A stretch of DNA of 64,000 bases, from assembly GCA_021847575.1 (NCBI GenBank), contig JAJZQO010000002.1:22829-86828 (forward strand), read 5' to 3'. Of the stretch, positions 1 to 55,679 are shown one piece after another. Origin of the DNA: Bacillota bacterium (GTDB lineage Bacteria; Bacillota; Sulfobacillia; JAJZYS01; JAJYTV01). The stretch's first letter is position 1; each line of letters opens with the position of its first letter. Under the pieces are notes generated by a model. It searched no databases, was not told the DNA's origin, and was given only the letters and a program-made list of their open reading frames with translations. The position numbers and the translations under genes are program-made.

Positions 1-183
1 GGCCGCAAGGTCGTAGACACCGCGGTGGACATTCGCGTTGTCCTCGACGTAGTAGCGCCGCACAGCGTCCAGAACCACCTGCGGCTTCTGCGAGGTGGCT
101 GCGGAATCGACGTAGCACAGGCGCTTGCCGTTTTCGTATCGCCTGAGCAGTGGGAATTCCGAACGCAATGCGACGGGGTTCAT
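1..183 (-). CDS. sufS: Cysteine desulfurase SufS, N-terminal 61 codons only; the gene continues beyond the window start
   Basis: Reverse-complement translation of 1..183 gives MNPVALRSEFPLLRRYENGKRLCYVDSAATSQKPQVV..., a typical SufS/class-V aminotransferase N-terminus. Its ATG overlaps the sufD stop (ATGA). Confidence 0.8.
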   Translation of the reverse strand, partial: MNPVALRSEFPLLRRYENGKRLCYVDSAATSQKPQVVLDAVRRYYVEDNANVHRGVYDLAA

Positions 184-1361
184 AGCTCTACCTTCTCCAG
201 GAAGATGTCGGCAATCTGCTCCCTCACGTCCCGGAGCGGGATGTCCGCGAGCAGCGAGGCGAGGAATCCAGCCACGATGAGTCGCCGAGACTCGACGGGC
301 GTGATGCCGCGGGATTCCATGTAGTAGATCTGCATGGGGTCGACCGGGCCGGCGGAGGCGGCGTGACCCGCGCTGACCTCCCATTCGGAGATCTCAAGCT
401 CGGGAATGAGATCGGCACGCGCCTCCTCGGACAGCATCAGGGTGTGCTCGTGCTGCCAGCCGCTCGCGTTCTTCGCGTTCTTGCGAATAACACTATTCGC
501 GCTGTATATCGCCCGCGCCTTCCCTTGCAGCACTCCGCGCGCCTCGATGTCGCTCGTCGAATGGGCGCCTTCGTGCACCATGACATGGCTGAACTCGAAA
601 TGCTGCCGCCTACCGCCGAAGAAGCTCGCCAAAACGCGGGCTTCGGACCCCGCTCCGCGCAGATACGTGCGCGTGTCGGAGACGGCGAGTCGCGCGCCGA
701 CATCCGCCAGGATCCATTGCAGCCGCGCGTCGCGGCCCAGTTCGGCCCGGCGCGGCCAATAGGCCTGCACGCGGCCGGGCAGGCGCTGGAATTCCGTATA
801 GTTGAGTGCCGCTCCGTCGCCCAGGACGATCTCCACGGCGCCGCGAACCGCCGCCTCGCTGCCAGCTTCGCCCTGCAGCTCGACGATCAGGTCCGCCCTC
901 GCGCCTTCCTCCAGGACCACAAGCACATGTGGCGCGAAGAGGGAACCGCCCTGCAGCCCGATGCTTACCTGCAAGGGCGACGCGAGTTCTCTGCCGCGCT
1001 TCACGCGGCAAAGAACGCCGCCGGCGAACGTCGCGAGGTGCAACGCATGCAGGTGGTCCTGACCCTCGCTGAAGAGCCGTCCGAGATGCCGCTCGAGGTC
1101 CGCCGTCCCCTCCGCGATGGCCTGCGTCAGCTCCATGACCTCGGCGCCGTCATGCACGTCGCCGACCGTGACCGATGCGGTCTGAGGCAAGGCCGGCAGG
1201 GTAAATCCCGCCGCCTCCAGCGGTGTCTGCTTCCTGTGTGCCAAGGGCAGATCGTGAGCCGCGCCGAGCGCCCCAAGGCGTCGCTCCTGCAGCCAGGACG
1301 GCTCGTTCGCGGCGAAAGCCGCGATCTGCTCCGGGGTTAGGTCCACCAAGGTATGAGCCAT
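180..1361 (-). CDS. sufD: Fe-S cluster assembly protein SufD
   Basis: ORF 180..1415. The internal Met MAHTLVDLTPEQ... is preceded by GGAGG, and the C-terminal SufBD fold motifs are present. Lies directly downstream of sufC. Confidence 0.8.
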   Translation of the reverse strand: MAHTLVDLTPEQIAAFAANEPSWLQERRLGALGAAHDLPLAHRKQTPLEAAGFTLPALPQTASVTVGDVHDGAEVMELTQAIAEGTADLERHLGRLFSEGQDHLHALHLATFAGGVLCRVKRGRELASPLQVSIGLQGGSLFAPHVLVVLEEGARADLIVELQGEAGSEAAVRGAVEIVLGDGAALNYTEFQRLPGRVQAYWPRRAELGRDARLQWILADVGARLAVSDTRTYLRGAGSEARVLASFFGGRRQHFEFSHVMVHEGAHSTSDIEARGVLQGKARAIYSANSVIRKNAKNASGWQHEHTLMLSEEARADLIPELEISEWEVSAGHAASAGPVDPMQIYYMESRGITPVESRRLIVAGFLASLLADIPLRDVREQIADIFLEKVEL

Positions 1362-1363
1362 TC

Positions 1364-2146
<783 letters not shown>

Positions 2147-5442: not shown

Positions 5443-6222
5443 TCACCCTTTGGCGAGGTACCGGCGAAGGTTCCCGGGATCGAGCCTCATGCCCACGAAA
5501 AAGGAACCGAAGAGCGCATAGATGGCGCTCACCTCGTCGAACCGCATCTCGTAGATGATCTTCTTGAATTGCAGCGGATCGTCCGAAAACAGGTCGACGC
5601 CCCACTCCCAGTCGTCGAGACCCATCGAGCCCGTGATGATCTGCCGCACACGATCGGCGTAGCCGCGGCCGATCATGCCGTGGCTGCGCATGAGGTCCCT
5701 GCGCTCCATGGCGTCGAGCATGTACCAGTTGCGCTGCTCGCCGCGCAGCTTGCTCATCGGGTAGAAGCAGATGTAGCCAGTGCGGGGAAGTTCCGGCTCG
5801 AGACGCCCGCGCAAGGCTGCCTCGGCCTCGCGCGACGCCTCCTCGCTGCGCGGCGCCGACGTGTGCGTCGACAGTTCCACGACAGAGAGGAATGAATACG
5901 CGGGCGCGAGAAAGCGTCCAAGACCGCTGCGCGCCCAGGCGTTCTCGATCGCGGCGAGACCTTCGAGGCTCGGCCTGAAGTGCACGCCCATGAGATCCGC
6001 CTTGTGGCCGAGCAGCCAGTAGTGGCCGCTTGATCCGGAATGGTCGGCTTCCTTCGCCTGTTCCCCCGCCATCAGTGCGTCCGCCTCGGCCAGCAGAGCG
6101 TCGCGCTCGCTGTCGGCCAATGCCTGCCAGAGCGGCCAGTCGACGCGGTAGAGACTGTGCAGGCAGAACCAGCCGTCAAGTGTCTGCGGTGCGTTGGCCA
6201 CCTTGAACTTCACCCCGTTCAT
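5443..6222 (-). CDS. hemQ: Coproheme decarboxylase HemQ (chlorite-dismutase family)
   Basis: Within ORF 5443..6726 the internal start gives MNGVKFKVANAPQTLDGWFCLHSLYRVDW..., a typical HemQ N-terminus of 259 aa. The long upstream extension is an out-of-context frame. Confidence 0.75.
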   Translation of the reverse strand: MNGVKFKVANAPQTLDGWFCLHSLYRVDWPLWQALADSERDALLAEADALMAGEQAKEADHSGSSGHYWLLGHKADLMGVHFRPSLEGLAAIENAWARSGLGRFLAPAYSFLSVVELSTHTSAPRSEEASREAEAALRGRLEPELPRTGYICFYPMSKLRGEQRNWYMLDAMERRDLMRSHGMIGRGYADRVRQIITGSMGLDDWEWGVDLFSDDPLQFKKIIYEMRFDEVSAIYALFGSFFVGMRLDPGNLRRYLAKG

Positions 6223-7843: not shown

Positions 7844-9340
7844 TCAGAAGTACTGCATCGGCTGGTCGTTGAGGTCGGCGATCACGGTCTTTGTCTCGAG
7901 AAACGCATCGACGCCCTCGACCCCGAGGTCCCGTCCGTAGCCGCTATGCTTGAAGCCGCCGAACGGCGCGGTGGGGGTCAACACCTGGTAGGCGTTCAGC
8001 CATACCGTGCCTGCCTCGAGCTCCTGCGAGACGCGCAGGGCCCGGCGCAGGTCCTGGGTCCAGACGGCGGCCGCAAGGCCATACATCGTGCCGTTGGCGA
8101 TGCGGACCGCCTCCTCGTCGCTGTCGAACGGGATGATCGCCGCCACGGGGCCGAAGATCTCCTCCTGCGCGATGTCCGAGCCGGGATCGACATCCCTGAA
8201 CACGGTGGGCGAAAAGAAGTAGCCGCCCCTACTGCGCTCGCCACGGCCGCCGAGGACGGTGCGGCCGCCGAGGTCGACGGCCCTGCCCACGTAACCCGAG
8301 ACGCGCTCGAACTGCGCTGCGCTGACGAGCGGGCCGAGGTCTGTCATGGCGTCCTCCGCTTCGCCCACGACGAGATCGCCCGCGCGCTCTGCCACCGCCT
8401 CGACGAACCGGTCGTAAAGGGGCCGCTGCACCAGGATGCGGCTGCCCGCCTGACAGACCTGGCCGGAATTGAAGAAAATGCCGAAGAGCGCCCCCGAAAC
8501 CGCGTCGTCGAGGTTCGCGTCGGCGAAGACGATGTTGGGGGACTTGCCGCCCAGTTCGAGCGACACGCGCTTGAGGCCCTCGGCGGCCGCGGCCGCCACG
8601 ATCCGACCCGTCTCTGTGCTGCCCGTCAGGGCGATCTTCGCGACCTGCGGGTGGCGCACGAGCGCCGCCCCGACCGTATCGCCGCCCGGCAGAACCGAGA
8701 GCACCCCCTCCGGCAGGCCGGCTTCGCGCGCCGCGTCGGCAAGGGCGAGCGCCACGAGCGGCGTCTCGGGCGCCGGCTTGAGTACCGCAACCGCACCCGC
8801 CGCGAGGCAGGCGGCCACCTTCCATGCCGGCATGAGCAGGGGGAAGTTCCAAGGTGTGATCAGTCCGGCAACCCCGACCGGCTGCTTCTGCGTCCAGGTC
8901 ATATAGCGCGTCGTGGCTCCCTGCAGGCTGAAGGGCAGCGTCCGGCCGTGCACGAGGGTACCGGCCGCCGCGAAGAAGTCGAAGGCGTCGGCCGCCATGG
9001 GGATTTCGATGAAGCGGGCCGCCGAGAGCGGCATGCCGCTCTCGCGCGCCACGAGGCGGGCGAGTTCGATCGTCCGCTCGCGCAGCCGCGTCGCCACCTG
9101 TCCAAGAATGCGCTGACGCTCGAGCACGGGCAGGTTGCGCCAGACACCTTCCGTGTGGGCTCGGTGCGCAACCGCGACAGCGGCCTCGACATCGGCCGGG
9201 CCGCTCGCGGCCACTTCCGCGAACGGCTCCCCCGTCGAGGGGTTCACATCGGCCGATACCTCGCCGCTCAGCGCAGCCCGCCGACCACCCCCGATCGAGA
9301 GCCGACCGTCGAGAAGGTCCCCTGCGATCTCGACGCTCAA
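7844..9340 (-). CDS. NAD(P)-dependent aldehyde dehydrogenase
   Basis: 498 aa. ALDH glutamate motif LELGGKSP and the catalytic Cys region FFNSGQVCQAGSR. Confidence 0.85.
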   Translation of the reverse strand: MSVEIAGDLLDGRLSIGGGRRAALSGEVSADVNPSTGEPFAEVAASGPADVEAAVAVAHRAHTEGVWRNLPVLERQRILGQVATRLRERTIELARLVARESGMPLSAARFIEIPMAADAFDFFAAAGTLVHGRTLPFSLQGATTRYMTWTQKQPVGVAGLITPWNFPLLMPAWKVAACLAAGAVAVLKPAPETPLVALALADAAREAGLPEGVLSVLPGGDTVGAALVRHPQVAKIALTGSTETGRIVAAAAAEGLKRVSLELGGKSPNIVFADANLDDAVSGALFGIFFNSGQVCQAGSRILVQRPLYDRFVEAVAERAGDLVVGEAEDAMTDLGPLVSAAQFERVSGYVGRAVDLGGRTVLGGRGERSRGGYFFSPTVFRDVDPGSDIAQEEIFGPVAAIIPFDSDEEAVRIANGTMYGLAAAVWTQDLRRALRVSQELEAGTVWLNAYQVLTPTAPFGGFKHSGYGRDLGVEGVDAFLETKTVIADLNDQPMQYF

Positions 9341-9765
9341 GGCATCACCAGATCCTCTCGGCCGAGACTGCGCACGTGGTCCGGGTAGAGCGGATAGATC
9401 TCGTCAAGGCTTGGCAGAAGCTTCATGGCCCGCGACAAGGGTCCCGTCGCACGGATCTGCTGGCGCGATAGCGCCTGGGCCAGGTCGAGCTGGCCCTGCC
9501 AGAAGCGGTTCGCGAGGTCGGCCGCCTGGTCGAAGATCAGCGTGGCGGGCGGCTGTTCCGGTCCCATAATGACGTGGAAGTCCCTGCCGGTCAGCGCGGG
9601 GTCTTCGGGCACCCAGCTGACGAATGCCTCGGGATCGTGGAACTGGAAGCGCACCGTGCCCCCCACCTTATGGATCAGGGTGGCCTGCGGCAGAGGGATG
9701 AGCGATTCGAAGAAACTGCCGAGCACGCGGTAGACTTCATCGGTGTCCTCGAAGTAGACGCCCAA
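9337..9765 (-). CDS. SCP2 sterol-carrier-like small protein
   Basis: 142-aa soluble protein with an SCP2-like C-terminal pattern. Overlaps the aldh start by 4 nt and sits between adh and aldh. Confidence 0.45.
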   Translation of the reverse strand: MGVYFEDTDEVYRVLGSFFESLIPLPQATLIHKVGGTVRFQFHDPEAFVSWVPEDPALTGRDFHVIMGPEQPPATLIFDQAADLANRFWQGQLDLAQALSRQQIRATGPLSRAMKLLPSLDEIYPLYPDHVRSLGREDLVMP

Positions 9766-12927: not shown

Positions 12928-13377
12928 TCAGTCCTTTGCGCGCCCGCGCTCCCGCGAGTCGATGAGGATCGTGACCGGTCCCGAGTTCTCCGAGAGGAAG
13001 CGCATGTCTGCGCCGAAGACGCCATGCTGGGCCGCGCCGAAGCCCAGGAGGAAGCGTTGCCACAGATCGCGCGCCTGCGCGGGCGGCAGAGCCGGACCGA
13101 AGTCCGGTCGCATGCCGCGCGCCACGTCCCCGTAAAGGGTGAACTGCGGCACGAGCAGGTGGCCAAGTCCCAGCTCGTCGGCACTGTGGCGCAGCCTACC
13201 TGTTTCGTCCGCGAAAATGCGCAGGCCGCGCAGCTTGCGCGTCATCCAGGCGAGGTCCTCGGGCCCGTCCGCCAGCCCGAAGCCGACCAGTGCGGCCTGG
13301 CCCTCCTCAATGGCCGCGACAAGTTCGCCTTCGACGCGGACCTCGGCCCTCGCGACGCGCATGGCAACCGCCCGCAC
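12928..13377 (-). CDS. dtd: D-aminoacyl-tRNA deacylase
   Basis: 149 aa. MRAVAMRV..., SQFTLYGD, and a C-terminal GPVT motif. Confidence 0.85.
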   Translation of the reverse strand: MRAVAMRVARAEVRVEGELVAAIEEGQAALVGFGLADGPEDLAWMTRKLRGLRIFADETGRLRHSADELGLGHLLVPQFTLYGDVARGMRPDFGPALPPAQARDLWQRFLLGFGAAQHGVFGADMRFLSENSGPVTILIDSRERGRAKD

Positions 13378-13609
13378 CGGCCCACCTCCAGCGATGCTGC
13401 AGCCTGCCCGGGGCCATTCAGCGACCCCTCAGGTCCCTGGCAGGCATCATAGCACCGGATGACACCCGCGTGGACAGGCCCCGCTGCAGAGCACGCCCCT
13501 GGGGACGGCCGGCGCCGGCAAACCCCGCCCGACGTGACGGTGATCACGCCTCGTCGGGCGGCCAGGGCGCATGCTGGGCCCACAGGACGCTTGCCGAGGA
13601 GGCGGGAGG

Positions 13610-14737
13610 ATGTCCCAGTCGCCCTATGCGGAGCAGCCGTTCATCGTCATCTGGGAAACGACGCAGGCCTGCGACCTCGCCTGCAAGCACTGCCGCGCCG
13701 CGGCGATACCCATGCGCAACCAGGAGGAGCTGAGCACGGAAGAGGCCATGCGGCTCATCGACGATGTCGCCACGATGCGGCCGCAGCCGAACTTCGTGCT
13801 GACCGGCGGCGATCCGATGAAGCGGCCGGACCTCGAGGAGATCATCCGCTACGCTGCCCGGGAGCGCGGGCTGCGCATCTCGATCACGCCCTCGGCCACG
13901 CCGCTTGTCACCCGGGAGCGCATCCAGGCCTGCGCCGAAGCCGGCCTCGCCCGCTGGGCGTTTTCGATCGACGGCGCCACCCCTGAGGCGCACGACTTCT
14001 TCCGCGGCCAGGATGGCTCGTTCGCCATCACGCTGCGTGCGATCGAGGAGCTCAAAACTCTCGGGCTGCCACTGCAGATCAACACGACCGTGTCGCGCTA
14101 CAACCAAGGCAGCCTGCCGGCTATCGGCAGGCTCGTGCAGGAGCTCGGCACAGTGCTCTGGAGCCTCTTCTTCCTGGTGCCGGTCGGACGCGGCCGCGCC
14201 GACGACGCCCTGGGACCCGCGGAAACCGAGTTGGTGCTCGGCTGGCTCGAGGAATTCGCCCGCACGGCGAACTGCGACGTGAAGACGACCGAGGCGCCGC
14301 AGTGGCGCAGGGTGCTGCGCGAACGGCGGCCGGCCGACGAACAGCGGGCACCTCTCGTGGCCGATCGGGTCGGGCGTGCGCCGCGGCCCGTCACAGACGG
14401 CGACGGCTTCATCTTCGTCAGCCACAAGGGCAACGTCTATCCGAGCGGCTTCCTGCCTCTCGCTCTTGGCAACGTGCGGCAGACCCCGCTCTCCGAGATC
14501 TACCGAAACTCGCCTGTGCTGCTCGCCCTGCGCGACCGCAGCCGACTGCGCGGCAAGTGCCGCATCTGCGCGTTCCGGGAGGTCTGCGGCGGCTCGCGCG
14601 CCAGGGCCTACGCGATCACCGGCGACTATCTCGAGAGCGACCCGTACTGCGCGCACCTGCCCGACCCCGCCGCCGGCCACCGGCAGGTGCGCGCCGACAT
14701 CCGCGCGCGACGCGATGACCCCGCGGAAGTGCGCTAG
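13610..14737 (+). CDS. Radical SAM enzyme with a C-terminal SPASM/twitch-type auxiliary Fe-S domain, stand-alone
   Basis: CDLACKHC (CxxxCxxC) near the N-terminus and a GGDP glycine-rich SAM motif. C-terminus: NCDV...VYPSGFL...GKCRICAFREVCGGSRARAY...DPYC. GGAGG RBS before the ATG at 13610; ORF 13571 is slightly over-called. Confidence 0.8.
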   Translation: MSQSPYAEQPFIVIWETTQACDLACKHCRAAAIPMRNQEELSTEEAMRLIDDVATMRPQPNFVLTGGDPMKRPDLEEIIRYAARERGLRISITPSATPLVTRERIQACAEAGLARWAFSIDGATPEAHDFFRGQDGSFAITLRAIEELKTLGLPLQINTTVSRYNQGSLPAIGRLVQELGTVLWSLFFLVPVGRGRADDALGPAETELVLGWLEEFARTANCDVKTTEAPQWRRVLRERRPADEQRAPLVADRVGRAPRPVTDGDGFIFVSHKGNVYPSGFLPLALGNVRQTPLSEIYRNSPVLLALRDRSRLRGKCRICAFREVCGGSRARAYAITGDYLESDPYCAHLPDPAAGHRQVRADIRARRDDPAEVR

Positions 14738-14749
14738 CCCCGGCGAACC

Positions 14750-15124
14750 TCAGGATGTCTCGCGGGTCAACAGGGCGTCGCGCAGGATCGGCACCTGGCC
14801 CCGTCCGACATCGCGCGTCGCGGTAACGAGCGCGATCGGCTGCCGCCGGCCCAGCTCCAGGATCTGCGCCAAGGCCGCCGCCCTCTCGGGCTGTGCGAGC
14901 TCGTCCATGTAGCGTCGGCGGAACTCCTCGCGCGCCTCGGGATTGGCGTGATACCAGGTGCGCAGCTCGTTCGACGGTGCCACATCCTTCAGCCAGACGT
15001 CCCACGGCGCGCCTTCCTTGCGCACGCCGCGCGGCCAGAGCCTGTCGACCAGCACGCGCAGGACACCCGGTGGCGTCGGCTCGTAGATGCGTCCCGTCAG
15101 GATGACCAAGCCCCATCCCCCCAT
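14750..15124 (-). CDS. DUF488 (YeaO-like) family protein
   Basis: RIYEPTPPGVLRVLVDRLWPRGVRKE...LKDVAPSNELRTWYHANPE matches the YeaO/DUF488 pattern. Start is ambiguous between 15124 (ATG) and 15187 (GTG); the latter is only 18 nt after the rel stop. Confidence 0.6.
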   Translation of the reverse strand: MGGWGLVILTGRIYEPTPPGVLRVLVDRLWPRGVRKEGAPWDVWLKDVAPSNELRTWYHANPEAREEFRRRYMDELAQPERAAALAQILELGRRQPIALVTATRDVGRGQVPILRDALLTRETS

Positions 15125-15204
15125 GTCGGCCGCCACGTCCCTGGAAGCCCGCTGCGCGGCGCGCGCCGCATCCACATCACCCGTCACACGTTCGTCAGGT
15201 CCCG

Positions 15205-17355
15205 TCAGGCGCGCTTCGCCGAGACGACGCGCTCCACCGAGTACACGTCCGGCAGGTGGCGCAAGCGCTCGATGATACCTCGCAGTTCACCTAGATGATG
15301 GATCTCCATCACGACCTGCACCAGGGCGGTGCGGTTGCGGTAGCCCCTTGCCCGCGCCGAAAGGATGTTGAGCCGCGTCTCGGCAACCGCCTGCGCGACA
15401 TCCGCCAGCAGGCCGGCGCGGTCGAGGGCGTGCACCTCGATCTCCACGGGATAGTTCTGCTGCAGCCCCTGGTCCCAGGCAACCTCGACGATGCGGTCCT
15501 GTTCGGTCAGGAGCGCCTTGGCGTTCGGGCATTCGGCCCGGTGCACCGTCACTCCCTTGCCGCGCGTCACATAGCCGATGATCGGGTCACCGGGCACCGG
15601 TGTGCAGCAGCGCGAGAAGCGCACGAGCAGGTTGTCCGCGCCGCGCACCCGCACGCCGTTCGTCGGCTTGCCGTAGTCGGCGAAGGCCTGCCTGTCCTCC
15701 TCCGGTACGCTCACCTGCGGCTCGGGCAGCCGGTCTTTGAGCCGCGTCACCACCTGCGGCGCCGAGAGTCCGCCGTAGCCGACGGCGGCGAAGAGGTCGT
15801 CGATGCCGCCGTAGTGCAGTCGTCGCGCCATGTCGTCGAGCCACTCGGTCCTCAGGATCTCCGACGGATCCAGGTTGACGCGCCTCGCCTCACGCTCGAC
15901 CATGTCCCGTCCGAGCTTGGCGTTCTCCTCGCGGTTCTTAGCCTTGAACCAGGAGCGGATGCGCGAGCGGGCGGAGGATGTCTGCACGAATTGCAGCCAG
16001 TCGAGCGAAGGTCCCTGGCTCGACTTCGACGTGAGGATCTCGACGATGTCGCCGTTTTCGAGCTTGTGGTCGAGGGGCATGATGCGCCCGTTGACGCGCG
16101 CGCCAACGCAGTGGTGGCCCACGTCGGTGTGGATGCGGTAGGCGAAGTCGACCGGCGTGGCACCCGCCGGCAGGTTGTGCACCTGGCCCTTCGGCGTGAA
16201 GACGAACACCTCGTCGGCGAAGAGGTCGATCTTGAGGGTCTCGAGGAACTCGCGCGCGTCGCGCAGGTCTCCCTGCCACTCGAGCAGTTGGCGCAACCAG
16301 CCGAGCTTCTGGTCGAAAGTCGGGTCGGACCGCCCTTCTTTGTACACCCAGTGCGCCGCGATGCCGAACTCTGCCGTGCGGTGCATCTCCTGCGTGCGGA
16401 TCTGCACCTCGACAGGAAGCCCGCCAGGCCCGACCACCGTCGTGTGCAGGCTCTGGTAGAGGTTCGGCTTGGGCATGGCGATGTAGTCCTTGAAGCGACC
16501 GGGAATCGGCGTGTACATGGTGTGGACGATGCCGAGGACGCCGTAGCAGTCCTTGACCGACTCCACGATCACGCGGAGCGCGACGAGGTCGTAGATCTCG
16601 CTGAAATCCTTGCCCTGGCGCATCTTGTTGTAGATGCTGTAAAAGCTCTTCGGCCGCCCCGAGATGTCGGCCGCCACGCCGTGCTCCAAGAGGTTCGCCA
16701 GGATCTCCTGCGCCACCTGGTCGATGTAGCGCTCGCGGTCCCCGCGGCGCTGGCGCACGAGTTCGGCGATGGCCTGGTAGGACTCCGGCTCGAGATAGCG
16801 GAGCGAGAGGTCCTCGAGTTCCCACTTGAGCCGATAGATGCCGAGCCTGTGCGCCAAAGGCGCATAGATCTCGAGCGTCTCCTGCGCTATGCGCCGCTGG
16901 CGCACCGGCTGCAGGTGCTTCAGGGTGCGCAGGTTGTGCAGGCGGTCCGCGAGCTTGATCAGGATGACGCGCACGTCCTGCGCCATGGCGAGGAACATCT
17001 TGCGCAGGTTCTCGGCCTCCTGCTCGAGCTGCGAGCGGTCCTCGAGCAGCGAGAGCTTGGTCACGCCGTCCACCAGCGTCGCCACGTCCCCGCCGAAGGT
17101 GCGGCCGATCTCGTCCAGGCTCGCCGACGTATCCTCCACGACATCGTGTAGAAAGGCCGCCTGCAGCGTCACCGCGTCCATCTCGAGGTCTGCGAGGATC
17201 TCCGCTACCGCCTCGGGATGCGTGATGTAGGGTTCACCCGACTGGCGGAGCTGGCCCTCGTGAAAATGCGCGGCGAACGTATGGGCGTGCGCGACCTCAT
17301 CCCGCTCGTGCGGCGTGAGATAGCCCAGTTTCGAGGCTACGTCGCTCCAAGGCAA
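15205..17355 (-). CDS. rel: Bifunctional (p)ppGpp synthetase/hydrolase Rel
   Basis: 716 aa with an HD hydrolase domain, RelA/SpoT synthetase domain, TGS and ACT. Confidence 0.9.
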   Translation of the reverse strand: MPWSDVASKLGYLTPHERDEVAHAHTFAAHFHEGQLRQSGEPYITHPEAVAEILADLEMDAVTLQAAFLHDVVEDTSASLDEIGRTFGGDVATLVDGVTKLSLLEDRSQLEQEAENLRKMFLAMAQDVRVILIKLADRLHNLRTLKHLQPVRQRRIAQETLEIYAPLAHRLGIYRLKWELEDLSLRYLEPESYQAIAELVRQRRGDRERYIDQVAQEILANLLEHGVAADISGRPKSFYSIYNKMRQGKDFSEIYDLVALRVIVESVKDCYGVLGIVHTMYTPIPGRFKDYIAMPKPNLYQSLHTTVVGPGGLPVEVQIRTQEMHRTAEFGIAAHWVYKEGRSDPTFDQKLGWLRQLLEWQGDLRDAREFLETLKIDLFADEVFVFTPKGQVHNLPAGATPVDFAYRIHTDVGHHCVGARVNGRIMPLDHKLENGDIVEILTSKSSQGPSLDWLQFVQTSSARSRIRSWFKAKNREENAKLGRDMVEREARRVNLDPSEILRTEWLDDMARRLHYGGIDDLFAAVGYGGLSAPQVVTRLKDRLPEPQVSVPEEDRQAFADYGKPTNGVRVRGADNLLVRFSRCCTPVPGDPIIGYVTRGKGVTVHRAECPNAKALLTEQDRIVEVAWDQGLQQNYPVEIEVHALDRAGLLADVAQAVAETRLNILSARARGYRNRTALVQVVMEIHHLGELRGIIERLRHLPDVYSVERVVSAKRA

Positions 17356-21322: not shown

Positions 21323-21721
21323 TCAGCCGCGTGGCGCGGTCGCCATCAAGGCCAGGGCGGCCAAGACACCGAGCAGTCTCAGGCTCCTGGCGATCCCCGT
21401 CTGCCTGAGATCCGCCGCCAGACGACTAGGCTCCGCCGAGACCGCCCACAGACCCGGGCCCAGCAAGGGGCCCAGCACGCGGACGAAGACGAAGATCCCC
21501 AGCGCCTGGGCCAGGCTACCCCGCCCACGGCTGCCGAAGCCGCTGGCGAAGGCCTCGCTCAGGATTCCGACGGCGATTGCGACGCTCGCCCAGATCGGGG
21601 AGCCCTGCGCGAAAGCAAGCCAGAGGGCAACGCCAAACCCGGCGAGGAAACCCGTCAGCGGTACGCCCAGCAGTGTCAGTGTGGTCAGGATCAAGCCGCT
21701 AGCGGCTGCAGCGACGCTCAT
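21323..21721 (-). CDS. Small integral membrane protein (DUF456-like)
   Basis: 132 aa, very hydrophobic with 3-4 predicted helices. Confidence 0.45.
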   Translation of the reverse strand: MSVAAAASGLILTTLTLLGVPLTGFLAGFGVALWLAFAQGSPIWASVAIAVGILSEAFASGFGSRGRGSLAQALGIFVFVRVLGPLLGPGLWAVSAEPSRLAADLRQTGIARSLRLLGVLAALALMATAPRG

Positions 21722-25985: not shown

Positions 25986-26693
25986 CTATGCCGGCAGGTG
26001 CAGGCTGAACGCCCGCGCCGTCGCGTCCGTGCCGCTGCAGATGCCGAACACCCCCACCGTCATGTCATCGCGGGCACGACCTTTCGCTTCGCCGTGCGAG
26101 AGGTCCAAGATCGCCTGCGCGAGTTGTTCGGCGCCTTGTTCGGCCGCCGAGCGGACCAGCCCGACGATGCCGTCCAGCACGCGGCTGCCGCCGGACCAGC
26201 GATCCGGTGCCAGGACACCATCCGAGAGCGCTACGATGATCGTCCCCTCGCCAAGGGGGAACTCATGCACGAACGGCTTCGTGGACGGATCCACGCCGAT
26301 CGGCCCGTAGGGACACATGAGCCGCTCGACAACGCCCTGCCGTCGCACCAGAACCATGTCCGGCCCGTTCTGCGACACAAGCAGCGCCCTCGCCTCGAGG
26401 TCCGCCGACACGATCGTCAGCGTCGCGGAGACCTTGCCGCCGCGCTGCGCGTAAAGGAGGTCGTGGACGGCGCGGGCCGTCGCCCCGTCGCGCGCGCCCT
26501 CGGAGATGAGGTTGGCGCAGCGGTTGGCGACGAGCAGGGCGGTCCGCCTCGCGGCCTCGCCGTTTCCCTGCCCATCGGCCATGATCAGCGACACGCCGCC
26601 GCGCGCCCGCTCAACCACCTGTGCCTGATCGCCGCTAAAGTCAAGGCCGTGCCGCGGCAGTTTGCGCACGGCGACGCAAATCTCAAGCGCCAC
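25986..26693 (-). CDS. PP2C/SpoIIE-type serine/threonine phosphatase (stand-alone catalytic domain)
   Basis: 235 aa. DFSGD...MADGQGNG...SDG acidic metal-binding pattern of the SpoIIE/PP2C fold. Overlaps the selB stop by 11 nt. Confidence 0.65.
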   Translation of the reverse strand: MALEICVAVRKLPRHGLDFSGDQAQVVERARGGVSLIMADGQGNGEAARRTALLVANRCANLISEGARDGATARAVHDLLYAQRGGKVSATLTIVSADLEARALLVSQNGPDMVLVRRQGVVERLMCPYGPIGVDPSTKPFVHEFPLGEGTIIVALSDGVLAPDRWSGGSRVLDGIVGLVRSAAEQGAEQLAQAILDLSHGEAKGRARDDMTVGVFGICSGTDATARAFSLHLPA

Positions 26694-28596
26694 CGCCGCT
26701 CCCCTCCCCTGGCGCGATCAGCCGTCGCACATCGCCGAAGCGCCTTGTCAGGCGTATCTGATCGAAATGTTCGAGCAGCGGCACCGCGTATTTGCGCGTC
26801 GTGCCCATCGCCTCGCGCAACTCGGCCGTCGTCGCCTCCCGGCCGCCTGCCAGCAGCCGCCGCACTTTTTCCGCCGCGTCGGTGAGCGCGGCCTTTGCGA
26901 AGTAGAGGTCTTTGGCCCTGGCGAGTCTGCCGCTGTCGACGAGGTATGCGAGAAGATCCTGCAGGCGCTCCGGCGACATGCCCGAGGCCCCGGGCCAGTC
27001 GGCGGGGACCGCGGGCTGCAGCCCGCCCGCGGCGACGAATGCCTCAAGGTCTCGCAGTTGTCGCTCGAGTTCGGGCGGGAACTGCTGGCTTGCCCCCAGC
27101 GGGCGCACGCGCTCGCCGGACAGCGCGACCCTGCCTTCCGCCGCGAGCTCCGCCAGGAGCTGCGATGCCTCGCGGACGGCCAGTTCCGGCACCACCTCGC
27201 GCCGCCACTGCTGGCGCTCGATGCCCCGCCAGAGGGGATCCAGATCCGCCTGGGCCAGCATCTGCTCGAGTTCCACCTGCACCCGGCGTTCAAACTCCTC
27301 CCGGTCGAGATAGAGCTCGCCCAGTCTGCGCAACCGTCCCTCCTCCGCGAGGCTTTCCGCCACCTGCCGGGCCTCGCTGGAAGCCAAACCCAACTCCTGC
27401 GCAAGCGTGCGCGTATCTGCCGCGAAACGCCGGCGCACCGCACCCAGCACCATGTCGGCGGGAGATGCCTCGCGCCTGCGCTCGAGTTCCGCGATATCCT
27501 CCGGGTGGCCGCGTCGCTGACGGCCCGCGAGATCGAGGACCAAGCCGCCACCGATCGTACGGGGCGGCGAGAAGCTGCGTACGACCACCCTGTCCCGCAC
27601 CACCGCAGGGAACGGCGTCTCGCCGCGGAAGCGCACGAAATCCCCTGTGCCGGGTGGGATCTCCTGACGCCTCAAGGGCACGACCCGGCCGATCACCTCC
27701 GTCGTGCCGATGTGCAAGCGCACGCGCACACGCGTGGGCAGCGGCGGGGCTTCGGCCAACAGGGTCAGATGCAGCGTGACCTGCGATGTCTCCTGCACGC
27801 TGCCCGGCGTGGCCAGCACCTGTCCGCGCGCAACCTGATCGCGATCGACCTGAGAGAGGTTGACCGCCGTGCGCTCGCCCGCGCGGCAGCGCTCGCGCGC
27901 CTCGCCGTGGGACTGCAGTCCGCGCACGCGCGCGCTCAGGTGCCCGGGCACCAGCTCCAGGCGATCGTCGACCGCGATCTCGCCAGACGCCAGTGTGCCG
28001 GTGACGACAGTGCCGAAACCGGGCATAGAGAACACGCGATCGATCGGCAGGCGCGCGGGTCCGAGCGCGCTGCGCGGACGCAGCCGAGCGACGGCCGCCT
28101 CCAGAAGTCCCTGCAGTTCCGCAATGCCTCCGCCTGTCACGGAGGATACGCCGACGACAGGCGCACCCTCGAGAAACGTGCCGTGGAGCTCCTGGCGCAG
28201 ATCGGCCTCGATCAACCGCCGCCACTCGTCGTCGACCAAGTCGATCTTGGTCAGGCAGACGATGCCTTCGGACACGCCGAGCAGCGACAGGATCTCGAGG
28301 TGCTCGCGCGTCTGCGGCATCACGCCCTCGTCAGCCGCCACCACGAGCAGAACGATGTCCATGCCTTGGGCGCCCGCGACCATGTGATGGATGAAGCGCT
28401 CGTGCCCAGGCACGTCCACGATCGCCGCCCTCTGGCCCGATGGCAGGGTGAAGGGCGCGAAGCCGAGCTCGATCGAGATGCCACGTGCCCGCTCTTCCGG
28501 CAGGCGATCGGTTTCGTGCCCCGTCAGCGCGCGGATAAGTGCCGTCTTGCCATGATCGACATGACCCGCCGTACCAATGATCAAGCGTAGATCCAT
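26683..28596 (-). CDS. selB: Selenocysteine-specific translation elongation factor SelB
   Basis: EF-Tu-like GTPase ([19 protein letters not shown]) followed by a long C-terminal tandem winged-helix region (...[20 protein letters not shown]). GGAGG RBS before the internal ATG at 28596. Confidence 0.8.
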
Positions 28597-28667
28597 GTGT
28601 GCCTCCGCTCTGCCCGGGCAGGCCCGCGCGGGCCGCTCAGAAAGCCCTTTTGCGTGTCCGACGGCGT

Positions 28668-28696
28668 TTGACAGCCGACACATCGGACTCTATACT
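28668..28696 (+). promoter_or_regulatory. Consensus sigma-70/sigma-A promoter for tRNA-Pro (TTGACA-N17-TATACT)
   Basis: -35 TTGACA at 28668..28673 and -10 TATACT at 28691..28696. The tRNA 5' end is at 28709. Confidence 0.7.
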
Positions 28697-36850: not shown

Positions 36851-38161
36851 TTGGAGAATCTCGTCGCCGCCCGCATCCAAATGGGCTTCACGCTGGGCTT
36901 TCACATGCTGTTTGCCGCGTTCGGCGTCGGCTTCCCGCTGCTGATGGTGCTTGCGGAAGGCATGGCGCTGCGCGGCGGTCCCGCCCACTATCTGAAGCTC
37001 GCCCAAATCTGGGGCAAGGCCAATGCCCTGCTGTTCGCGGTGGGCGCCGTCAGCGGCACGGCGCTGGCGTTCGAGCTCGGCCTGCTTTGGCCGGGGTTCA
37101 TGCTGTTGGCCGGCAGCACGATCGGCGCCGGCTTCGCCAGCGAAGCATTCGCCTTCTTCATCGAAGCGATCTTCATCGGTCTCTACTTGTATGGCTGGAA
37201 TCGGCTAAGCCCTTTGGGCCACTGGCTGACCGGCATCCCCATCGTGATCGGCGGCATGGCGTCCGCCGCGCTCGTCGTCTCCGTCGACGCGTGGATGCAG
37301 CATCCCGTAGGCGCCGCATCGCTCCTGCGGACACCTGCGCGCGCGGCGCCCCTCGCGATGCTGTTCCAGAACCCGCACTGGCCAGTCATGGCACTCCACG
37401 CCACGATCGCCTGCCTGGCCGCCACAGGCTTCACCCTGGCTACGGTGTACGCCATGGGGATGCTGCGCGGCCGACGCGACGAGATCCACAAGGCGGGGCT
37501 GCGCATCGCAATGGTGTTGGCGACCGGGTCCGCCATCCTGATGCCCTTGACGGGCGACATGAGCGGAAAGGCCGTGGCAGCGTTCCAGCCGACCAAGCTG
37601 GCGGCGATGGAGTCCCAGTTCCGCACGCAGACCGCCGCGCCACTGCGCATCGGCGGCTTGCCGGACCCGAAGGCGCGCACGGTCAACTATGCTCTCGAGA
37701 TTCCCGGTGGCCTGAGCTGGCTTGCCTATGGCCGGAGCTCCGCGAGGGTCGTCGGCCTGGACCATGTCAGGACGGCAGACTGGCCCGACGTGCCGGTGAC
37801 CCACGTATCCTTTCAAGTGATGGTGGGAGCGGGCCTGCTGATGGTCGTGATCGCCCTCTACTACTGGTGGAACATGCGTTCGCGGGGAGGCGGACTGACC
37901 AGAAGTCTCCTCGGTGCCCTCGTCGCCGGCGGTCCGCTTGCGTTCTTCGCGCTCGAGACAGGCTGGATGGTGACGGAGGTCGGGCGGCAGCCGTGGGTCG
38001 TCTATGGTGTGCAGCGCACGGCGGACGCGGTCACGCCCGCGCATGATCTGCTCGGTTACCTGATCGGCTACGCCCTGCTCTACCTGCTGCTGGGCACGAC
38101 GGTGATCTGGCTCCTGCGCCGGGTCGAACGAGAGGCGCCGGCCCTGGAGGAAGCGGCATGA
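36851..38161 (+). CDS. cydA: Cytochrome bd ubiquinol/menaquinol oxidase subunit I
   Basis: 436 aa. Conserved N-terminus MGFTLGFHMLFAAFGVGFPLL and Q-loop region. TTG start. Confidence 0.85.
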   Translation: MENLVAARIQMGFTLGFHMLFAAFGVGFPLLMVLAEGMALRGGPAHYLKLAQIWGKANALLFAVGAVSGTALAFELGLLWPGFMLLAGSTIGAGFASEAFAFFIEAIFIGLYLYGWNRLSPLGHWLTGIPIVIGGMASAALVVSVDAWMQHPVGAASLLRTPARAAPLAMLFQNPHWPVMALHATIACLAATGFTLATVYAMGMLRGRRDEIHKAGLRIAMVLATGSAILMPLTGDMSGKAVAAFQPTKLAAMESQFRTQTAAPLRIGGLPDPKARTVNYALEIPGGLSWLAYGRSSARVVGLDHVRTADWPDVPVTHVSFQVMVGAGLLMVVIALYYWWNMRSRGGGLTRSLLGALVAGGPLAFFALETGWMVTEVGRQPWVVYGVQRTADAVTPAHDLLGYLIGYALLYLLLGTTVIWLLRRVEREAPALEEAA

Positions 38162-39168
38162 CAGCGGGAGTGCCTTGGCCGGACGTGGCCTGGCTCGTCG
38201 CCGTCGCCGCCATGACCGCCTACATGCTGCTGGGCGGGGCGGACTTCGGCGGCGGCGTCTGGGACCTCTTCGCCTGGGGACAGGATGCGGCGTTGCAGCG
38301 GCGCGCGATCGCGCGGGCGATGGGTCCGGTCTGGGAAGCGAACCACGTCTGGCTGATCTTTCTCCTGATCCTGCTGTTCACGCTTTTCCCGATCGCGTTC
38401 CACCGGCTGGTCATCGGTCTCTATCTGCCGCTCAACCTCGTCCTGCTCGGCATCATCCTGCGCGGAGCGGCCTTTGTCTTCCGGGCGCATGGTCGCCGCG
38501 GCATCGGCCCACAGTCCACGTGGGGCAGGACATTCGGAGCAGCCAGCAGCCTGACGGTCGTGCTGCTCGGCGCGTCGCTCGCCGCGACCTCCTCCGGCGG
38601 GGATCTCACCATCGCCTGGCGCTCGTGGCTCAGCCCCTTCGCCATCGTGACGGGCCTCTTCGCGCTGTCCGCAACCGCCTACCTGGCCGCCACCTACTTG
38701 ACGCTCGAGGCGTCCGGCGGACTGCGCAAGACCTTCCGCGCCAGGGCACTGCTGGCGGGGGAAGCCGCCGGACTCGCCGCCGTCCTGGGCCTCGCCCTCA
38801 TGCCGTTCGAGGCGCCGCGCCTCTTCCTGCGTCTCGTGGCCCCGGATGTCCTCGGCCTCGCTCTCCTTGCGGCCGGGCTGGGCGCAGGGTCATACGCGAG
38901 TCTGCGCGCAGGGCAGGACCGGCTCGGCAGGTCTCTTGCGGCCGCCACCCTGTCGGTGCTGCTCTGGTCCTGGGCCGCGGCGCAGTGGCCATACATCATC
39001 TATCCCGGCTTCACCGTGCGCGGGAGCGCCGCGCCGGCCCTGGCTGTGCGACAGGTGCTGACGCTGGTGCCGTTCGGCCTCGTGCTCCTGCTCCCGTCGC
39101 TCTGGCTCCTGTTCCACGTGTTCAAGGGCCGCTTGCCGATCGACGGCGACGCGGGACCCGCCCGCTAG
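38158..39168 (+). CDS. cydB: Cytochrome bd oxidase subunit II
   Basis: 336 aa, overlaps the cydA stop (ATGA). Typical CydB hydrophobic profile and the EANHVWL motif. Confidence 0.85.
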   Translation: MTAGVPWPDVAWLVAVAAMTAYMLLGGADFGGGVWDLFAWGQDAALQRRAIARAMGPVWEANHVWLIFLLILLFTLFPIAFHRLVIGLYLPLNLVLLGIILRGAAFVFRAHGRRGIGPQSTWGRTFGAASSLTVVLLGASLAATSSGGDLTIAWRSWLSPFAIVTGLFALSATAYLAATYLTLEASGGLRKTFRARALLAGEAAGLAAVLGLALMPFEAPRLFLRLVAPDVLGLALLAAGLGAGSYASLRAGQDRLGRSLAAATLSVLLWSWAAAQWPYIIYPGFTVRGSAAPALAVRQVLTLVPFGLVLLLPSLWLLFHVFKGRLPIDGDAGPAR

Positions 39169-50869: not shown

Positions 50870-51706
50870 TCAGGCGTGCGCGACCAAGGTGAAGAGAACC
50901 ATGACCGCCGTGGCCAGGGCCACCTCCTGGCGTCCCAGCCGGTTCATCTCGAGCCACGGCCCCCCGCTGCCGAGCCACAGATACGCCCGTACCATCTGCG
51001 GCAGGAGCGGCACCGCCGCCCAGATTGGCAGGTAGCCGAACAGGCTGACGACGACGACCCCCACCGTGATCAACGAGGCCGATCCTGCCATGAGGATCGT
51101 CCCCTGCCGCACCTCCTCGGCCTCCATGTGCGTGCGCGCGGCCACGATCTGCAGACGCAGGAAGCCCACTCCGTAGAGGAAGTGCAGCACGAGTCCGAGG
51201 TAAATGATCCACATCGCCATATCCGGCCGCAGCCCTAGCGCCAGCCACGTGCCAGGTACAACGAGCAGTAACCCCCATGTCGCGACCAGCTCGCGCAGGG
51301 TGCGCCATCTCTCGCCCCAGAAGCCGAGCAGGATGGCAACCGCGTAAAAGGGTGCGGCCAGAAACGGAAGCAGGTAGATGGCGGCGTTCCGGGCTTCGCT
51401 GGCTGCGGCCGCTCCGAATGCGCCCGAGAGCAGCAGTTCGCAGAGCAAGACGCCGAGGCAGTTCCAGGCCCGGCCGGGCTCGGACCCGGATACGCGAAGG
51501 AGCCGCTCAAGCGGCTCCTTCGCCATCAGCAGGAGAACCATTGCCGGCAGGAGCCATACGGCCGCCCAGGTGAGGTCGTCCGCCACGGCCAGCGCCGTCA
51601 CGTAGCCCGTGATGAGCATCGACCAGGCGCCATATTCGCGCGGCAGCAGCCACCACAAGCCTTTGCGCGGCGCCGCAGCCCCCCTTATCGCTTGTGCAGT
51701 GTACAT
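50870..51706 (-). CDS. Polytopic membrane protein, hypothetical (YwiC-like?)
   Basis: 278 aa with about 8 hydrophobic helices. No catalytic motifs recognised. Confidence 0.4.
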   Translation of the reverse strand: MYTAQAIRGAAAPRKGLWWLLPREYGAWSMLITGYVTALAVADDLTWAAVWLLPAMVLLLMAKEPLERLLRVSGSEPGRAWNCLGVLLCELLLSGAFGAAAASEARNAAIYLLPFLAAPFYAVAILLGFWGERWRTLRELVATWGLLLVVPGTWLALGLRPDMAMWIIYLGLVLHFLYGVGFLRLQIVAARTHMEAEEVRQGTILMAGSASLITVGVVVVSLFGYLPIWAAVPLLPQMVRAYLWLGSGGPWLEMNRLGRQEVALATAVMVLFTLVAHA

Positions 51707-55611: not shown

Positions 55612-55679
55612 TCCATCACCCCCACCTGGCCAATGCACCGGGCCGAGCCCGGCTCGGCGCCAGCGAGAAATCCCCGTGC

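Follow-up and report, generated by a model that had tools for sequence, protein, structure and literature searches.

The 64,000-nucleotide stretch of DNA analysed here (the window; Bacillota bacterium, assembly GCA_021847575.1, contig JAJZQO010000002.1) carries, between rel and dtd, a gene for a radical S-adenosylmethionine (SAM) protein. We propose that this gene probably encodes a heme synthase of the AhbD type without the first auxiliary iron–sulfur site (AuxI), that is, an oxygen-independent coproheme decarboxylase that is induced by anoxia or nitric oxide (NO) and serves as an alternative to ChdC. The protein belongs to family TIGR04053 and has the ligand pattern of AuxI-less AhbD; its gene lies behind a conserved operator, forms part of an insertion and co-occurs with chdC and hemACDB. 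The catalytic activity is proposed by analogy with characterised relatives.

Genes were taken from the open reading frame (ORF) listing and from direct reading, and families were assigned by Pfam and NCBIfam profile searches. Numbering refers to the whole window, which has a G+C content of 67.6%.

13610..14737, plus strand: radical SAM gene, 375 amino acids (ORF listing and direct reading; Pfam Radical_SAM and a weak SPASM match)
13596..13602, plus strand: ribosome-binding site GAGGAGG of the radical SAM gene, read from the sequence and largely kept in relatives

An upstream ATG at 13571 is a possible alternative start. The start at 13610 is preferred because of the GAGGAGG at 13596..13602 and the alignment to homologs.

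The protein is an unambiguous member of TIGR04053 (radical SAM/SPASM, 'BA_1875 family'), scoring 456.3 bits against a cut-off of 395, with residues 6–351 aligned to positions 3–366 of the 366-position profile. The second-best NCBIfam model is that of the AhbD heme b synthase (TIGR04545), which aligns over its full length at 324.4 bits; NirJ2, a haloarchaeal pseudo-SAM family, NirJ, AhbC and NirJ1 come next. AhbD, NirJ2, AhbC and NirJ are all radical SAM enzymes that modify tetrapyrroles. The original prediction had described a SPASM enzyme of unknown substrate for which an AhbD-like role in heme synthesis was unlikely. Neither statement holds: the nearest characterised relative of this TIGR04053 member is AhbD, which is also the next-best model, and for the haloarchaeal type of member a role in anaerobic heme synthesis is backed by genetics. 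The profile search places the protein cleanly in one family, essentially the outcome against which that prediction had been staked, and the 'orphan SPASM enzyme' is largely explained as a further member of a known, named and partly characterised family.

TIGR04053 is very large, with at least 8000 database matches, and its named members are mostly from Paenibacillus, Sporosarcina, Bacillus-group genera and Thermaerobacter. Homologs from Haloferax, Thermus, Bacillus, Acidobacteriota and Arachnia also pass its cut-off, and several homologs 50–58% identical to the window protein carry the IMG label 'AdoMet-dependent heme synthase'. A species-level genome collection contains at least 525 relatives, confirmed among the 599 pattern-matched stretches listed. 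The 80 loci kept from this collection are mostly from Acidobacteriota (Terriglobia) and Gemmatimonadota, with some from Bacillota, Propionibacteriaceae and others. On plasmids the family forms a discrete block of sequences 47–54% identical to the window protein (Bacillus cereus group, Thermus, Deinococcus, haloarchaea), after which the next matches are true NirJ at 29–32%, then PqqE and MftC. A TIGR04053 gene whose product shares 50% identity with the window protein makes up most of one plasmid record of 2,894 bp labelled Campylobacter jejuni (NZ_CP029056.1); the record is taxonomically misplaced and may represent contamination.

The N-terminal CDLACKHC provides the CX3CX2C motif (C21, C25 and C28), and VYPS, KCRICAFREVCGGS and DPYC are all present in the protein. 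Nine residues are invariant in 69 sequences within Bacillota: C21, C25, C28, S279 (of YPS), C317, C320, C326, S329 (of CGGS) and C347. The same residues are invariant in an alignment of 14 sequences across phyla, and the window protein shows the complete TIGR04053 pattern of CX3CX2C, YPS, CX2CX5CGGS and a distal Cys. Counted from the sequence, the C-terminal spacing is E228-x32-V-x17-S279-x37-C317-x2-C320-x5-C326-x2-S329-x17-C347, which equals the spacing of the SPASM cysteines C223, C256, C274, C312, C315, C321, C324 and C342 of Methanosarcina barkeri AhbD.

All AhbDs carry an N-terminal CX3CX2C and a C-terminal CX2CX5CX20–38C (PMC10452713), and the window protein has this motif pair (C21-x3-C25-x2-C28 and C317-x2-C320-x5-C326-x20-C347). 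It does not have the four AuxI cysteines of the full-SPASM AhbD of methanogens and sulfate reducers, the positions of which are occupied by E228, a Val, S279 and S329. In the AhbDs of non-methanogenic archaea, C223, C274 and C324 are replaced by conserved Glu, Ser and Ser, C256 is not kept, and only CX2CX5CX20–38C is left (Fix et al. 2023, PMC10452713). Judged by the published spacing, E228, S279 and S329 reproduce this pattern, so that the window protein shares with AuxI-less AhbD (Aeropyrum pernix Q9YBE2; haloarchaeal proteins such as HVO_2144) both the Glu/Ser/Ser in place of three AuxI cysteines and the distances between them (PMC10452713). The position of E228 is Glu in most family members and Ala in four of the 14 aligned sequences; both serines are invariant. 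In an alignment to solved PqqE, S279 is paired with the Cys of the 'PC' motif and S329 with that of the 'GGC' motif. The plasmid records contained no reference named 'heme b synthase' by the Prokaryotic Genome Annotation Pipeline, and the Cys-to-Ser mapping rests on the published spacing and the PqqE alignment.

The AuxI site is predicted to be lost because the two Ser-for-Cys changes (YPS and CGGS) together remove ligands, leaving CX2CX5CX20C (AuxII). By its ligand pattern, the protein should hold, besides the radical SAM cluster, a single auxiliary site, AuxII, with AuxI missing, an arrangement that is neither canonical SPASM nor Twitch. The degenerate SPASM region of the original prediction is real, with four C-terminal cysteines conserved, and so is the Ser for Cys in VYPSGFL; this substitution, however, is neither single, since a second one occurs at CGGS, nor specific to this gene, being a family-wide feature of AuxI-less AhbD. 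The Cys of NCDV, which had been counted as part of the SPASM site, is kept only in the closest relatives and is not a cluster ligand.

The AlphaFold2 model of the protein has a pLDDT of 90.6, and the radical SAM core begins near residue 10. No RRE/PqqD-like domain is found in the protein by Pfam search or in the model. The nearest solved folds in a Foldseek search are PqqE (6C8V), SkfB (6EFN), SuiB (5V1Q; TM 0.70) and anSME (4K37), and no AhbD structure was found in the PDB by sequence or fold search. With these SPASM maturases the protein shares the overall fold (TM up to 0.70) and the AuxII-type CX2CX5C...C site; it differs from them in having no AuxI site, no peptide-recognition domain and no precursor, and the identity is 13–22%.

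This structural similarity, together with the weak Pfam SPASM match (24.4 bits), speaks for the default view of the original prediction, a SPASM maturase of a ribosomal peptide or protein (of the ribosomally synthesized and post-translationally modified peptide (RiPP), anSME, PqqE or MftC kind) whose substrate is encoded elsewhere. We regard this view as hardly credible. The models of PqqE, MftC, sactipeptide and other RiPP maturases score about 90–130 bits against cut-offs of 265–725, only four of the seven to eight SPASM cysteines are left across the family, and the RRE/PqqD-like domain is absent. Moreover, no recurrent small peptide, sulfatase, pqq or mft genes occur across 85 neighbourhoods, and no conserved precursor-like ORF lies upstream, where only the operator and promoter are conserved. 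For an AhbD-type enzyme no precursor ORF is expected, because the proposed substrate, coproheme, is a metabolite.

Genetic evidence on AuxI-less AhbD comes from Haloferax volcanii, where deletion of ahbD (HVO_2144) leaves aerobic growth normal and strongly reduces denitrifying and dimethyl sulfoxide (DMSO)-respiring growth (Kosugi et al. 2017, PMC5746218). Protoheme given to the mutant restores DMSO-respiring growth and, in part, denitrifying growth, and HVO_2144 is located among nirK, halocyanin and norB (PMC5746218). On a plasmid of Haloferax larsenii, a radical SAM gene is found in a setting of genes for DUF2249, halocyanin, a 762-residue norB-type oxidase, helix-turn-helix (HTH) proteins and a multicopper oxidase. 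Its product is 51% identical to the window protein and scores 501.6 bits with TIGR04053 and 342.8 bits with the AhbD model, also below the AhbD cut-off of 500; a Haloferax elongans protein in the same 90%-identity cluster bears the NCBI name TIGR04053. By this neighbourhood, the haloarchaeal AhbD type with genetics (HVO_2144) would be a TIGR04053 member.

The haloarchaeal AhbD also coexists with a ChdC-type enzyme, the use of the two being split between aerobic and anaerobic conditions (PMC5746218). The window protein differs from AuxI-less archaeal AhbD in its bacterial host, in the source of coproheme, which here would be the coproporphyrin-dependent pathway and not siroheme, and in the unrelated rel–dtd location. 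With the AhbD of M. barkeri and Desulfovibrio vulgaris (TIGR04545; EC 1.3.98.6) it has in common the length class, the CX3CX2C, the C-terminal CX2CX5CX20–38C and the proposed reaction, a SAM-dependent oxidative decarboxylation of two coproheme propionates. In contrast to these enzymes it is without all four AuxI ligands and resides in a host with ChdC. No ahbA, ahbB or ahbC was seen in the window.

A homolog in Thermus thermophilus (UniProt D5GU68; 51% identity, 482.8 bits with TIGR04053) is named NirJ and is encoded in the order norC-norB-norH-nirS-nirJ-cytochrome c. Its promoter, PnirJ, is silent aerobically, is induced by anoxia together with nitrate, nitrite or NO, and needs DnrS, the CRP-family DnrT and the nsrRST cluster (PMC5748679). 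The Thermus protein is assigned to heme d1 by name only (PMC7694296). It resembles the window protein in its family, in the promoter of its own, induced by anoxia and nitrogen oxides, and in a DUF488 gene 3.7 kb away. Unlike the window gene, nirJ is embedded in a nor/nir island (nic cluster) on a megaplasmid, is assumed to serve heme d1 and has no exact GTGA-N6-TCAC box upstream.

The name and the nirS-nirJ-nirM cluster of the Thermus homolog, and the similarity to the NirJ2 and NirJ models (TIGR04055 and TIGR04051; 216 and 160 bits), would fit a NirJ-like heme d1 enzyme serving a cd1 nitrite reductase. We consider this very unlikely for the window protein, since both scores are far under the respective cut-offs of 500 and 515, and true plasmid-borne NirJ is only 29–32% identical, against 47–54% for the family. 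No nirS, nirF or nirDLGH is present among the annotated window ORFs. Furthermore, the gene is retained in Haloferax, whose nitrite reductase is the copper enzyme NirK, and in the Bacillus loci, where no cd1 reductase is seen.

An AhbD-type heme synthase fits the heme pathway genes of the window, which are located on both sides of the radical SAM gene:

5443..6222, minus strand: chdC/hemQ, H2O2-dependent coproheme decarboxylase (NCBIfam NF008913, 328.6 bits, cut-off 253; Pfam Chlor_dismutase)
52636..57011, minus strand: hemA-hemC-hemD-hemB, tetrapyrrole trunk (Pfam GlutR_N/GlutR_dimer, Porphobil_deam, HEM4, ALAD)

The bona fide ChdC together with hemACDB implies that the organism makes heme de novo by a pathway ending at the coproheme step, and cydAB at 36.9–39.2 kb encodes a heme-dependent oxidase. 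The hemQ gene that the original prediction placed 8 kb from the radical SAM gene is present at 7.4 kb. In relatives without the 7.1–12.1 kb block the distance is only 3.7 kb. In a Thermaerobacter metagenome-assembled genome (MAG; L001:10001-12955) three genes come after the radical SAM gene: a short one for a Crp-type HTH protein, a YgaP-like one and, 1.2 kb away, one for a HemQ-like protein of the actinobacterial type with 222 residues, whose 184 bits fall short of the cut-off of 235.

ChdC/HemQ shares its proposed substrate and product with the window protein. It has an unrelated fold (a ferredoxin-like dimeric alpha-beta barrel) and needs an oxidant, whereas the radical SAM route is oxygen-independent. 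Because ChdC/HemQ needs H2O2, bacteria with the coproporphyrin pathway need another route to heme under anoxia. A parallel is provided by CgdH/HemN, a radical SAM propionate decarboxylase that is the anaerobic twin of an oxygen-requiring enzyme and is commonly under FNR/Anr/Dnr control; it differs in belonging to another radical SAM subfamily, in having no SPASM domain, in its metal-free substrate and in acting at a different step of a different pathway. Dailey reportedly described AhbD in Gram-positive bacteria in PNAS in 2015 and in MMBR in 2017. In recent reviews, AhbD homologs of Gram-positives that have the coproporphyrin-dependent pathway and no other Ahb enzymes are presented as the anaerobic alternative to ChdC (PMC13564367, PMC12670364). 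In a further recent paper the oxygen-independent enzyme of Bacillaceae is still called 'yet unknown' (PMC10965808). The locus offers a clean example of ChdC together with an AuxI-less AhbD-type enzyme that has a predicted anoxia- or NO-responsive promoter of its own.

By analogy with characterised AhbD, the [4Fe-4S] cluster bound by CX3CX2C would cleave SAM reductively, and the resulting 5'-deoxyadenosyl radical would remove a hydrogen from one of the propionates of coproheme (Fe-coproporphyrin III). Loss of CO2 and one electron from the substrate radical would then give a vinyl group, and a second round would yield heme b. The single auxiliary [4Fe-4S] cluster (C317, C320, C326 and C347) is the likely electron outlet. 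The enzyme would thus turn coproheme into heme by an oxygen-independent route and back up HemQ/ChdC, which depends on peroxide.

The region between dtd and the radical SAM gene contains two elements that suggest how the gene is controlled:

13534..13547, no strand: CRP/FNR-type palindrome GTGACGGTGATCAC (GTGA-N6-TCAC), predicted operator in the 232 bp that separate dtd from the radical SAM gene
13570..13575, plus strand: −10-like hexamer CATGCT, 22 nucleotides downstream of the palindrome, kept as CAnnAT or CAnnnT

GTGA-N6-TCAC has a single occurrence in the window, against 0.72 expected by chance. We aligned eight related upstream regions from two different genomic contexts, with a mean identity of 55%. 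The palindrome is invariant in all eight of these otherwise poorly conserved regions, as are the defined positions of a GCAnn(A/C)T element (the −10-like hexamer) 22 nucleotides after it, and the ribosome-binding site is kept to GGAGG in seven. The centre of the palindrome lies 29 nucleotides upstream of the start of the hexamer. When the start site is taken as about 7 nucleotides after the hexamer, this centre would fall near −41.5, the geometry of class II CRP/FNR promoters, and a consensus scan of 13300..15300 found no self-sufficient sigma-70-type promoter. Expression would accordingly be switched on under anoxia or NO through a class II CRP/FNR-type promoter with GTGA-N6-TCAC near −41.5.

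The operator is not confined to the close relatives. Of 85 distinct loci from several phyla, 48 have an exact GTGA-N6-TCAC at −115 to −55 relative to the start codon; the background frequency of the motif is 0.06 per kb. The box of Acidobacteriota is mostly (T)GTGAC-N4-GTCAC(A) at −72 to −80, the Thermaerobacter MAG has the same palindrome as the window at −90, and the box also occurs in a Dormibacterota MAG, a Binatia MAG, Bacillus mycoides and a further Bacillota-type context (L090). A sigma-54 reading of a TGGCA...TTGC-like element downstream of the Acidobacteriota box is ruled out by the spacing. Searches of the window with proteins from related loci (tblastn) gave no matches for Crp-family, hemerythrin, DUF2249, NnrS-like or HhH-GPD proteins, and the regulator would be a CRP/HcpR/DNR-like protein encoded outside the window. 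This conserved operator upstream of family members in several phyla, and the haloarchaeal nor-cluster gene that matches the characterised ahbD by neighbourhood and belongs to TIGR04053, are two leads that would make the function and regulation of the family directly testable.

Two small ORFs in this part of the window, one of 22 codons (13394..13462) and an antisense one of 113 codons (13242..13583), had been named as unconvincing candidates for a precursor peptide. Both are present as merely mechanical ORFs, and we reject them as precursors, the region being unconserved apart from operator and promoter. The upstream alignment shows no conserved small ORF, as anticipated from the lack of a precursor-like ORF beside the gene.

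In distant genomes, TIGR04053 members have neighbourhoods of the NO or denitrification type. Within 6 kb of the family gene in loci L011–L084 (Acidobacteriota, Gemmatimonadota, Propionibacteriaceae and others) we find a Crp/Fnr regulator in 36 loci, RIC/ScdA in 28, an NnrS-like protein in 27, the quinol-dependent NO reductase (qNOR) NorB in 13 and a LytTR response regulator in 13, as well as hemerythrin and rubrerythrin. No heme-pathway genes are found within this distance. In B. mycoides the family gene has DUF438/DUF1858, nrdDG, a YwiC-like gene and FprA as neighbours.

Several points weigh against assigning coproheme decarboxylation to the window protein. Its score of 324.4 bits misses the equivalog cut-off of 500 of the AhbD model (TIGR04545). 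AuxI, absent here, is the cluster of M. barkeri AhbD whose loss causes a monovinyl intermediate to accumulate (PMC10452713). The link between HVO_2144 and TIGR04053 is one of presumed orthology, drawn from a congeneric gene neighbourhood, and the Thermus homolog is named NirJ and adjoins nirS, the gene for cd1 nitrite reductase. NCBI lists TIGR04053 without a functional name, and the literature searched contained no biochemical assay of this protein or of any bacterial TIGR04053 member, a search with the family identifier giving none. The genes for ferrochelatase (cpfC) and coproporphyrinogen oxidase (cgoX) were not seen in the window, and in L011–L084 a tblastn search with the window HemQ gave no chdC match at up to 10 kb from the family gene.

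These neighbourhoods could instead reflect a member of the AhbD/NirJ superfamily that is not isofunctional with AhbD and has a job in NO stress, for instance acting on another tetrapyrrole or on damaged or nitrosylated heme, or supplying a cofactor for NorB/NnrS-type proteins, possibly with DUF488 as a partner. Across phyla the gene keeps company with NO-response genes (RIC/ScdA, NnrS-like, qNOR, hemerythrin, DUF2249, FprA) rather than with heme-pathway genes, it belongs to a separately curated family with scores well under the AhbD cut-off, it lacks a cluster that is important for the second decarboxylation in M. barkeri AhbD (PMC10452713), and a DUF488 gene is nearby again in three independent contexts. 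We nevertheless judge this account unlikely. The rescue of the H. volcanii mutant by protoheme points to heme supply itself (PMC5746218), and chdC is close to the radical SAM gene in two unrelated Bacillota contexts. In addition, an anaerobic isoenzyme of heme synthesis is expected to be co-regulated with denitrification genes, because NorB and cytochromes need heme b.

A more far-reaching and quite speculative idea, to which we give little credence, is that TIGR04053 is the catalytic core of a cross-phylum NO/anoxia stimulon (Acidobacteriota, Bacillota, Deinococcota and haloarchaea) under the conserved CRP-type operator. The enzyme would use its single auxiliary cluster in an NO-specific role, for example to rebuild or repair heme for hemoproteins damaged by NO or to act on another tetrapyrrole, with DUF488 as a partner, which in relatives accompanies an HhH-GPD glycosylase under the same operator.

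For the AhbD-type enzyme proposed here, the genomic position points to an insertion in one lineage. The genes next to it are the following:

12928..13377, minus strand: dtd, D-aminoacyl-tRNA deacylase (Pfam Tyr_Deacylase, 4.5e-37)
14750..15124, maximal ORF to 15187, minus strand: DUF488 (YeaO-like) gene, 124 amino acids (Pfam 'inactive' N3 subclade)
15205..17355, minus strand: rel, (p)ppGpp synthetase/hydrolase (ORF; homologs with RelA_SpoT, HD, TGS and ACT domains)

Direct reading bears out the gene coordinates, the radical SAM motifs and the position of the DUF488 gene close behind rel as first described. The DUF488 product scores above both Pfam cut-offs (DUF488-N3i, PF22752, 103.9 bits, cut-off 27, 1.2e-29; DUF488, PF04343, 93 bits, cut-off 22.2, 2.8e-26). 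Its true start is probably the ATG at 15124, which is matched by a protein of 124 residues that is 98% identical to the query (P0141), close homologs having 118–124 residues. In the wider order, secD-secF-...-recJ-apt-rel lies on one side, and dtd, a metallo-beta-lactamase (MBL) hydrolase gene and, further out, the Chlor_dismutase gene on the other. The radical SAM gene is divergent from dtd and convergent with the DUF488 gene (12-nucleotide gap), which has the direction of rel and lies 80 bp behind it, so that the two inserted genes do not form one operon.

The order rel-DUF488-radical SAM-(variable)-dtd-MBL is common to loci from at least six different MAG assemblies or samples, in which the radical SAM protein is 81–84% identical to that of the window. 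In the nearest outgroup (L094, found through its Rel, 80% identical) the order is apt-rel-dtd-MBL-chdC-alcohol dehydrogenase-aminotransferase-EamA-ABC transporter, with nothing between rel and dtd. In three remoter outgroups (L095, L096 and L097, Caldinitratiruptor) dtd follows directly after rel and neither a DUF488 nor a radical SAM gene is present there. Since rel and dtd are adjacent in the outgroups, the radical SAM and DUF488 genes are a clade-specific insertion, which would have entered in the ancestor of a small clade of high-GC Bacillota. The insertion into the rel–dtd neighbourhood was correctly recognised in the original prediction, and a gene order universal among relatives, which would have spoken against it, is not what these four outgroups, without both genes, display.

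The gap between the radical SAM gene and dtd varies, being empty in the window and occupied by a MerR/resolvase gene in L002 (8849-9472) and by an abhydrolase gene and a 77-codon ORF in L088 (8248-9243). Because the relatives carry different cargo here, the gap is suggestive of a recombination hot spot. In the Thermaerobacter MAG, a radical SAM copy 74% identical to the window protein lies at an unrelated locus without DUF488.

The pairing of DUF488 with the radical SAM gene recurs in a few places. In L090:5907-8615, DUF488 and an HhH-GPD glycosylase gene form an apparent operon followed by the TIGR04053 gene, beside hemerythrin/DUF2249 genes, and GTGA-N6-TCAC with the 22-nucleotide spacing precedes both the DUF488 operon (hexamer CATCAT) and the radical SAM gene. 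In L092:6001-7379, the neighbourhood of DUF488-HhH-GPD includes a Crp regulator, a ferredoxin, hemerythrin/DUF2249 and an NnrS-like gene. The DUF488 proteins of L090 and L092 are 54–67% identical to that of the window, and their surroundings hint that DUF488-HhH-GPD is a nitrosative-damage repair module of the same regulon. The two genes travel together in the close clade, in L090 and, at a distance of 3.7 kb, in Thermus, but among the distant loci L011–L084 DUF488 is found within 10 kb in only one (L046). We treat the pairing as a loose, lineage-limited association, which may be what is left of an NO/anoxia island from which the insertion came. A general partnership of DUF488 with the radical SAM protein was rejected, the remoter DUF488 homologs (56% identity) lying in unrelated contexts.

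The segment 7100..12098, between the MBL gene and chdC, encodes a haloacid dehalogenase (HAD) hydrolase, an aldehyde dehydrogenase, a 142-residue ORF without a family match, a zinc alcohol dehydrogenase and a class II aldolase-like domain protein. As a whole it does not occupy this position in L002 or L094, although L088 has an Aldolase_II gene directly behind the MBL gene, and it is probably a second lineage-specific insertion. Three ORFs of the window (9337..9765 and 21323..21721 on the minus strand, 58157..59308 on the plus strand) have a coding-like GC content at third codon positions and no Pfam match; the first of them is also without an NCBIfam match, and the one of 132 residues keeps its position in the relative L002. 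In the segment 50870..57011, ispH (LytB) and a YwiC-like gene (50870..51706) come after hemA-hemC-hemD-hemB; the TIGR04053 genes of Thermus (L086) and B. mycoides (L087) likewise have YwiC-like genes in their vicinity. Elsewhere in the window, selB (26683..28683), sufBD/sufC (180..2146) and cydAB (36851..39168) fit a respiring lifestyle capable of microaerobic or anaerobic growth.

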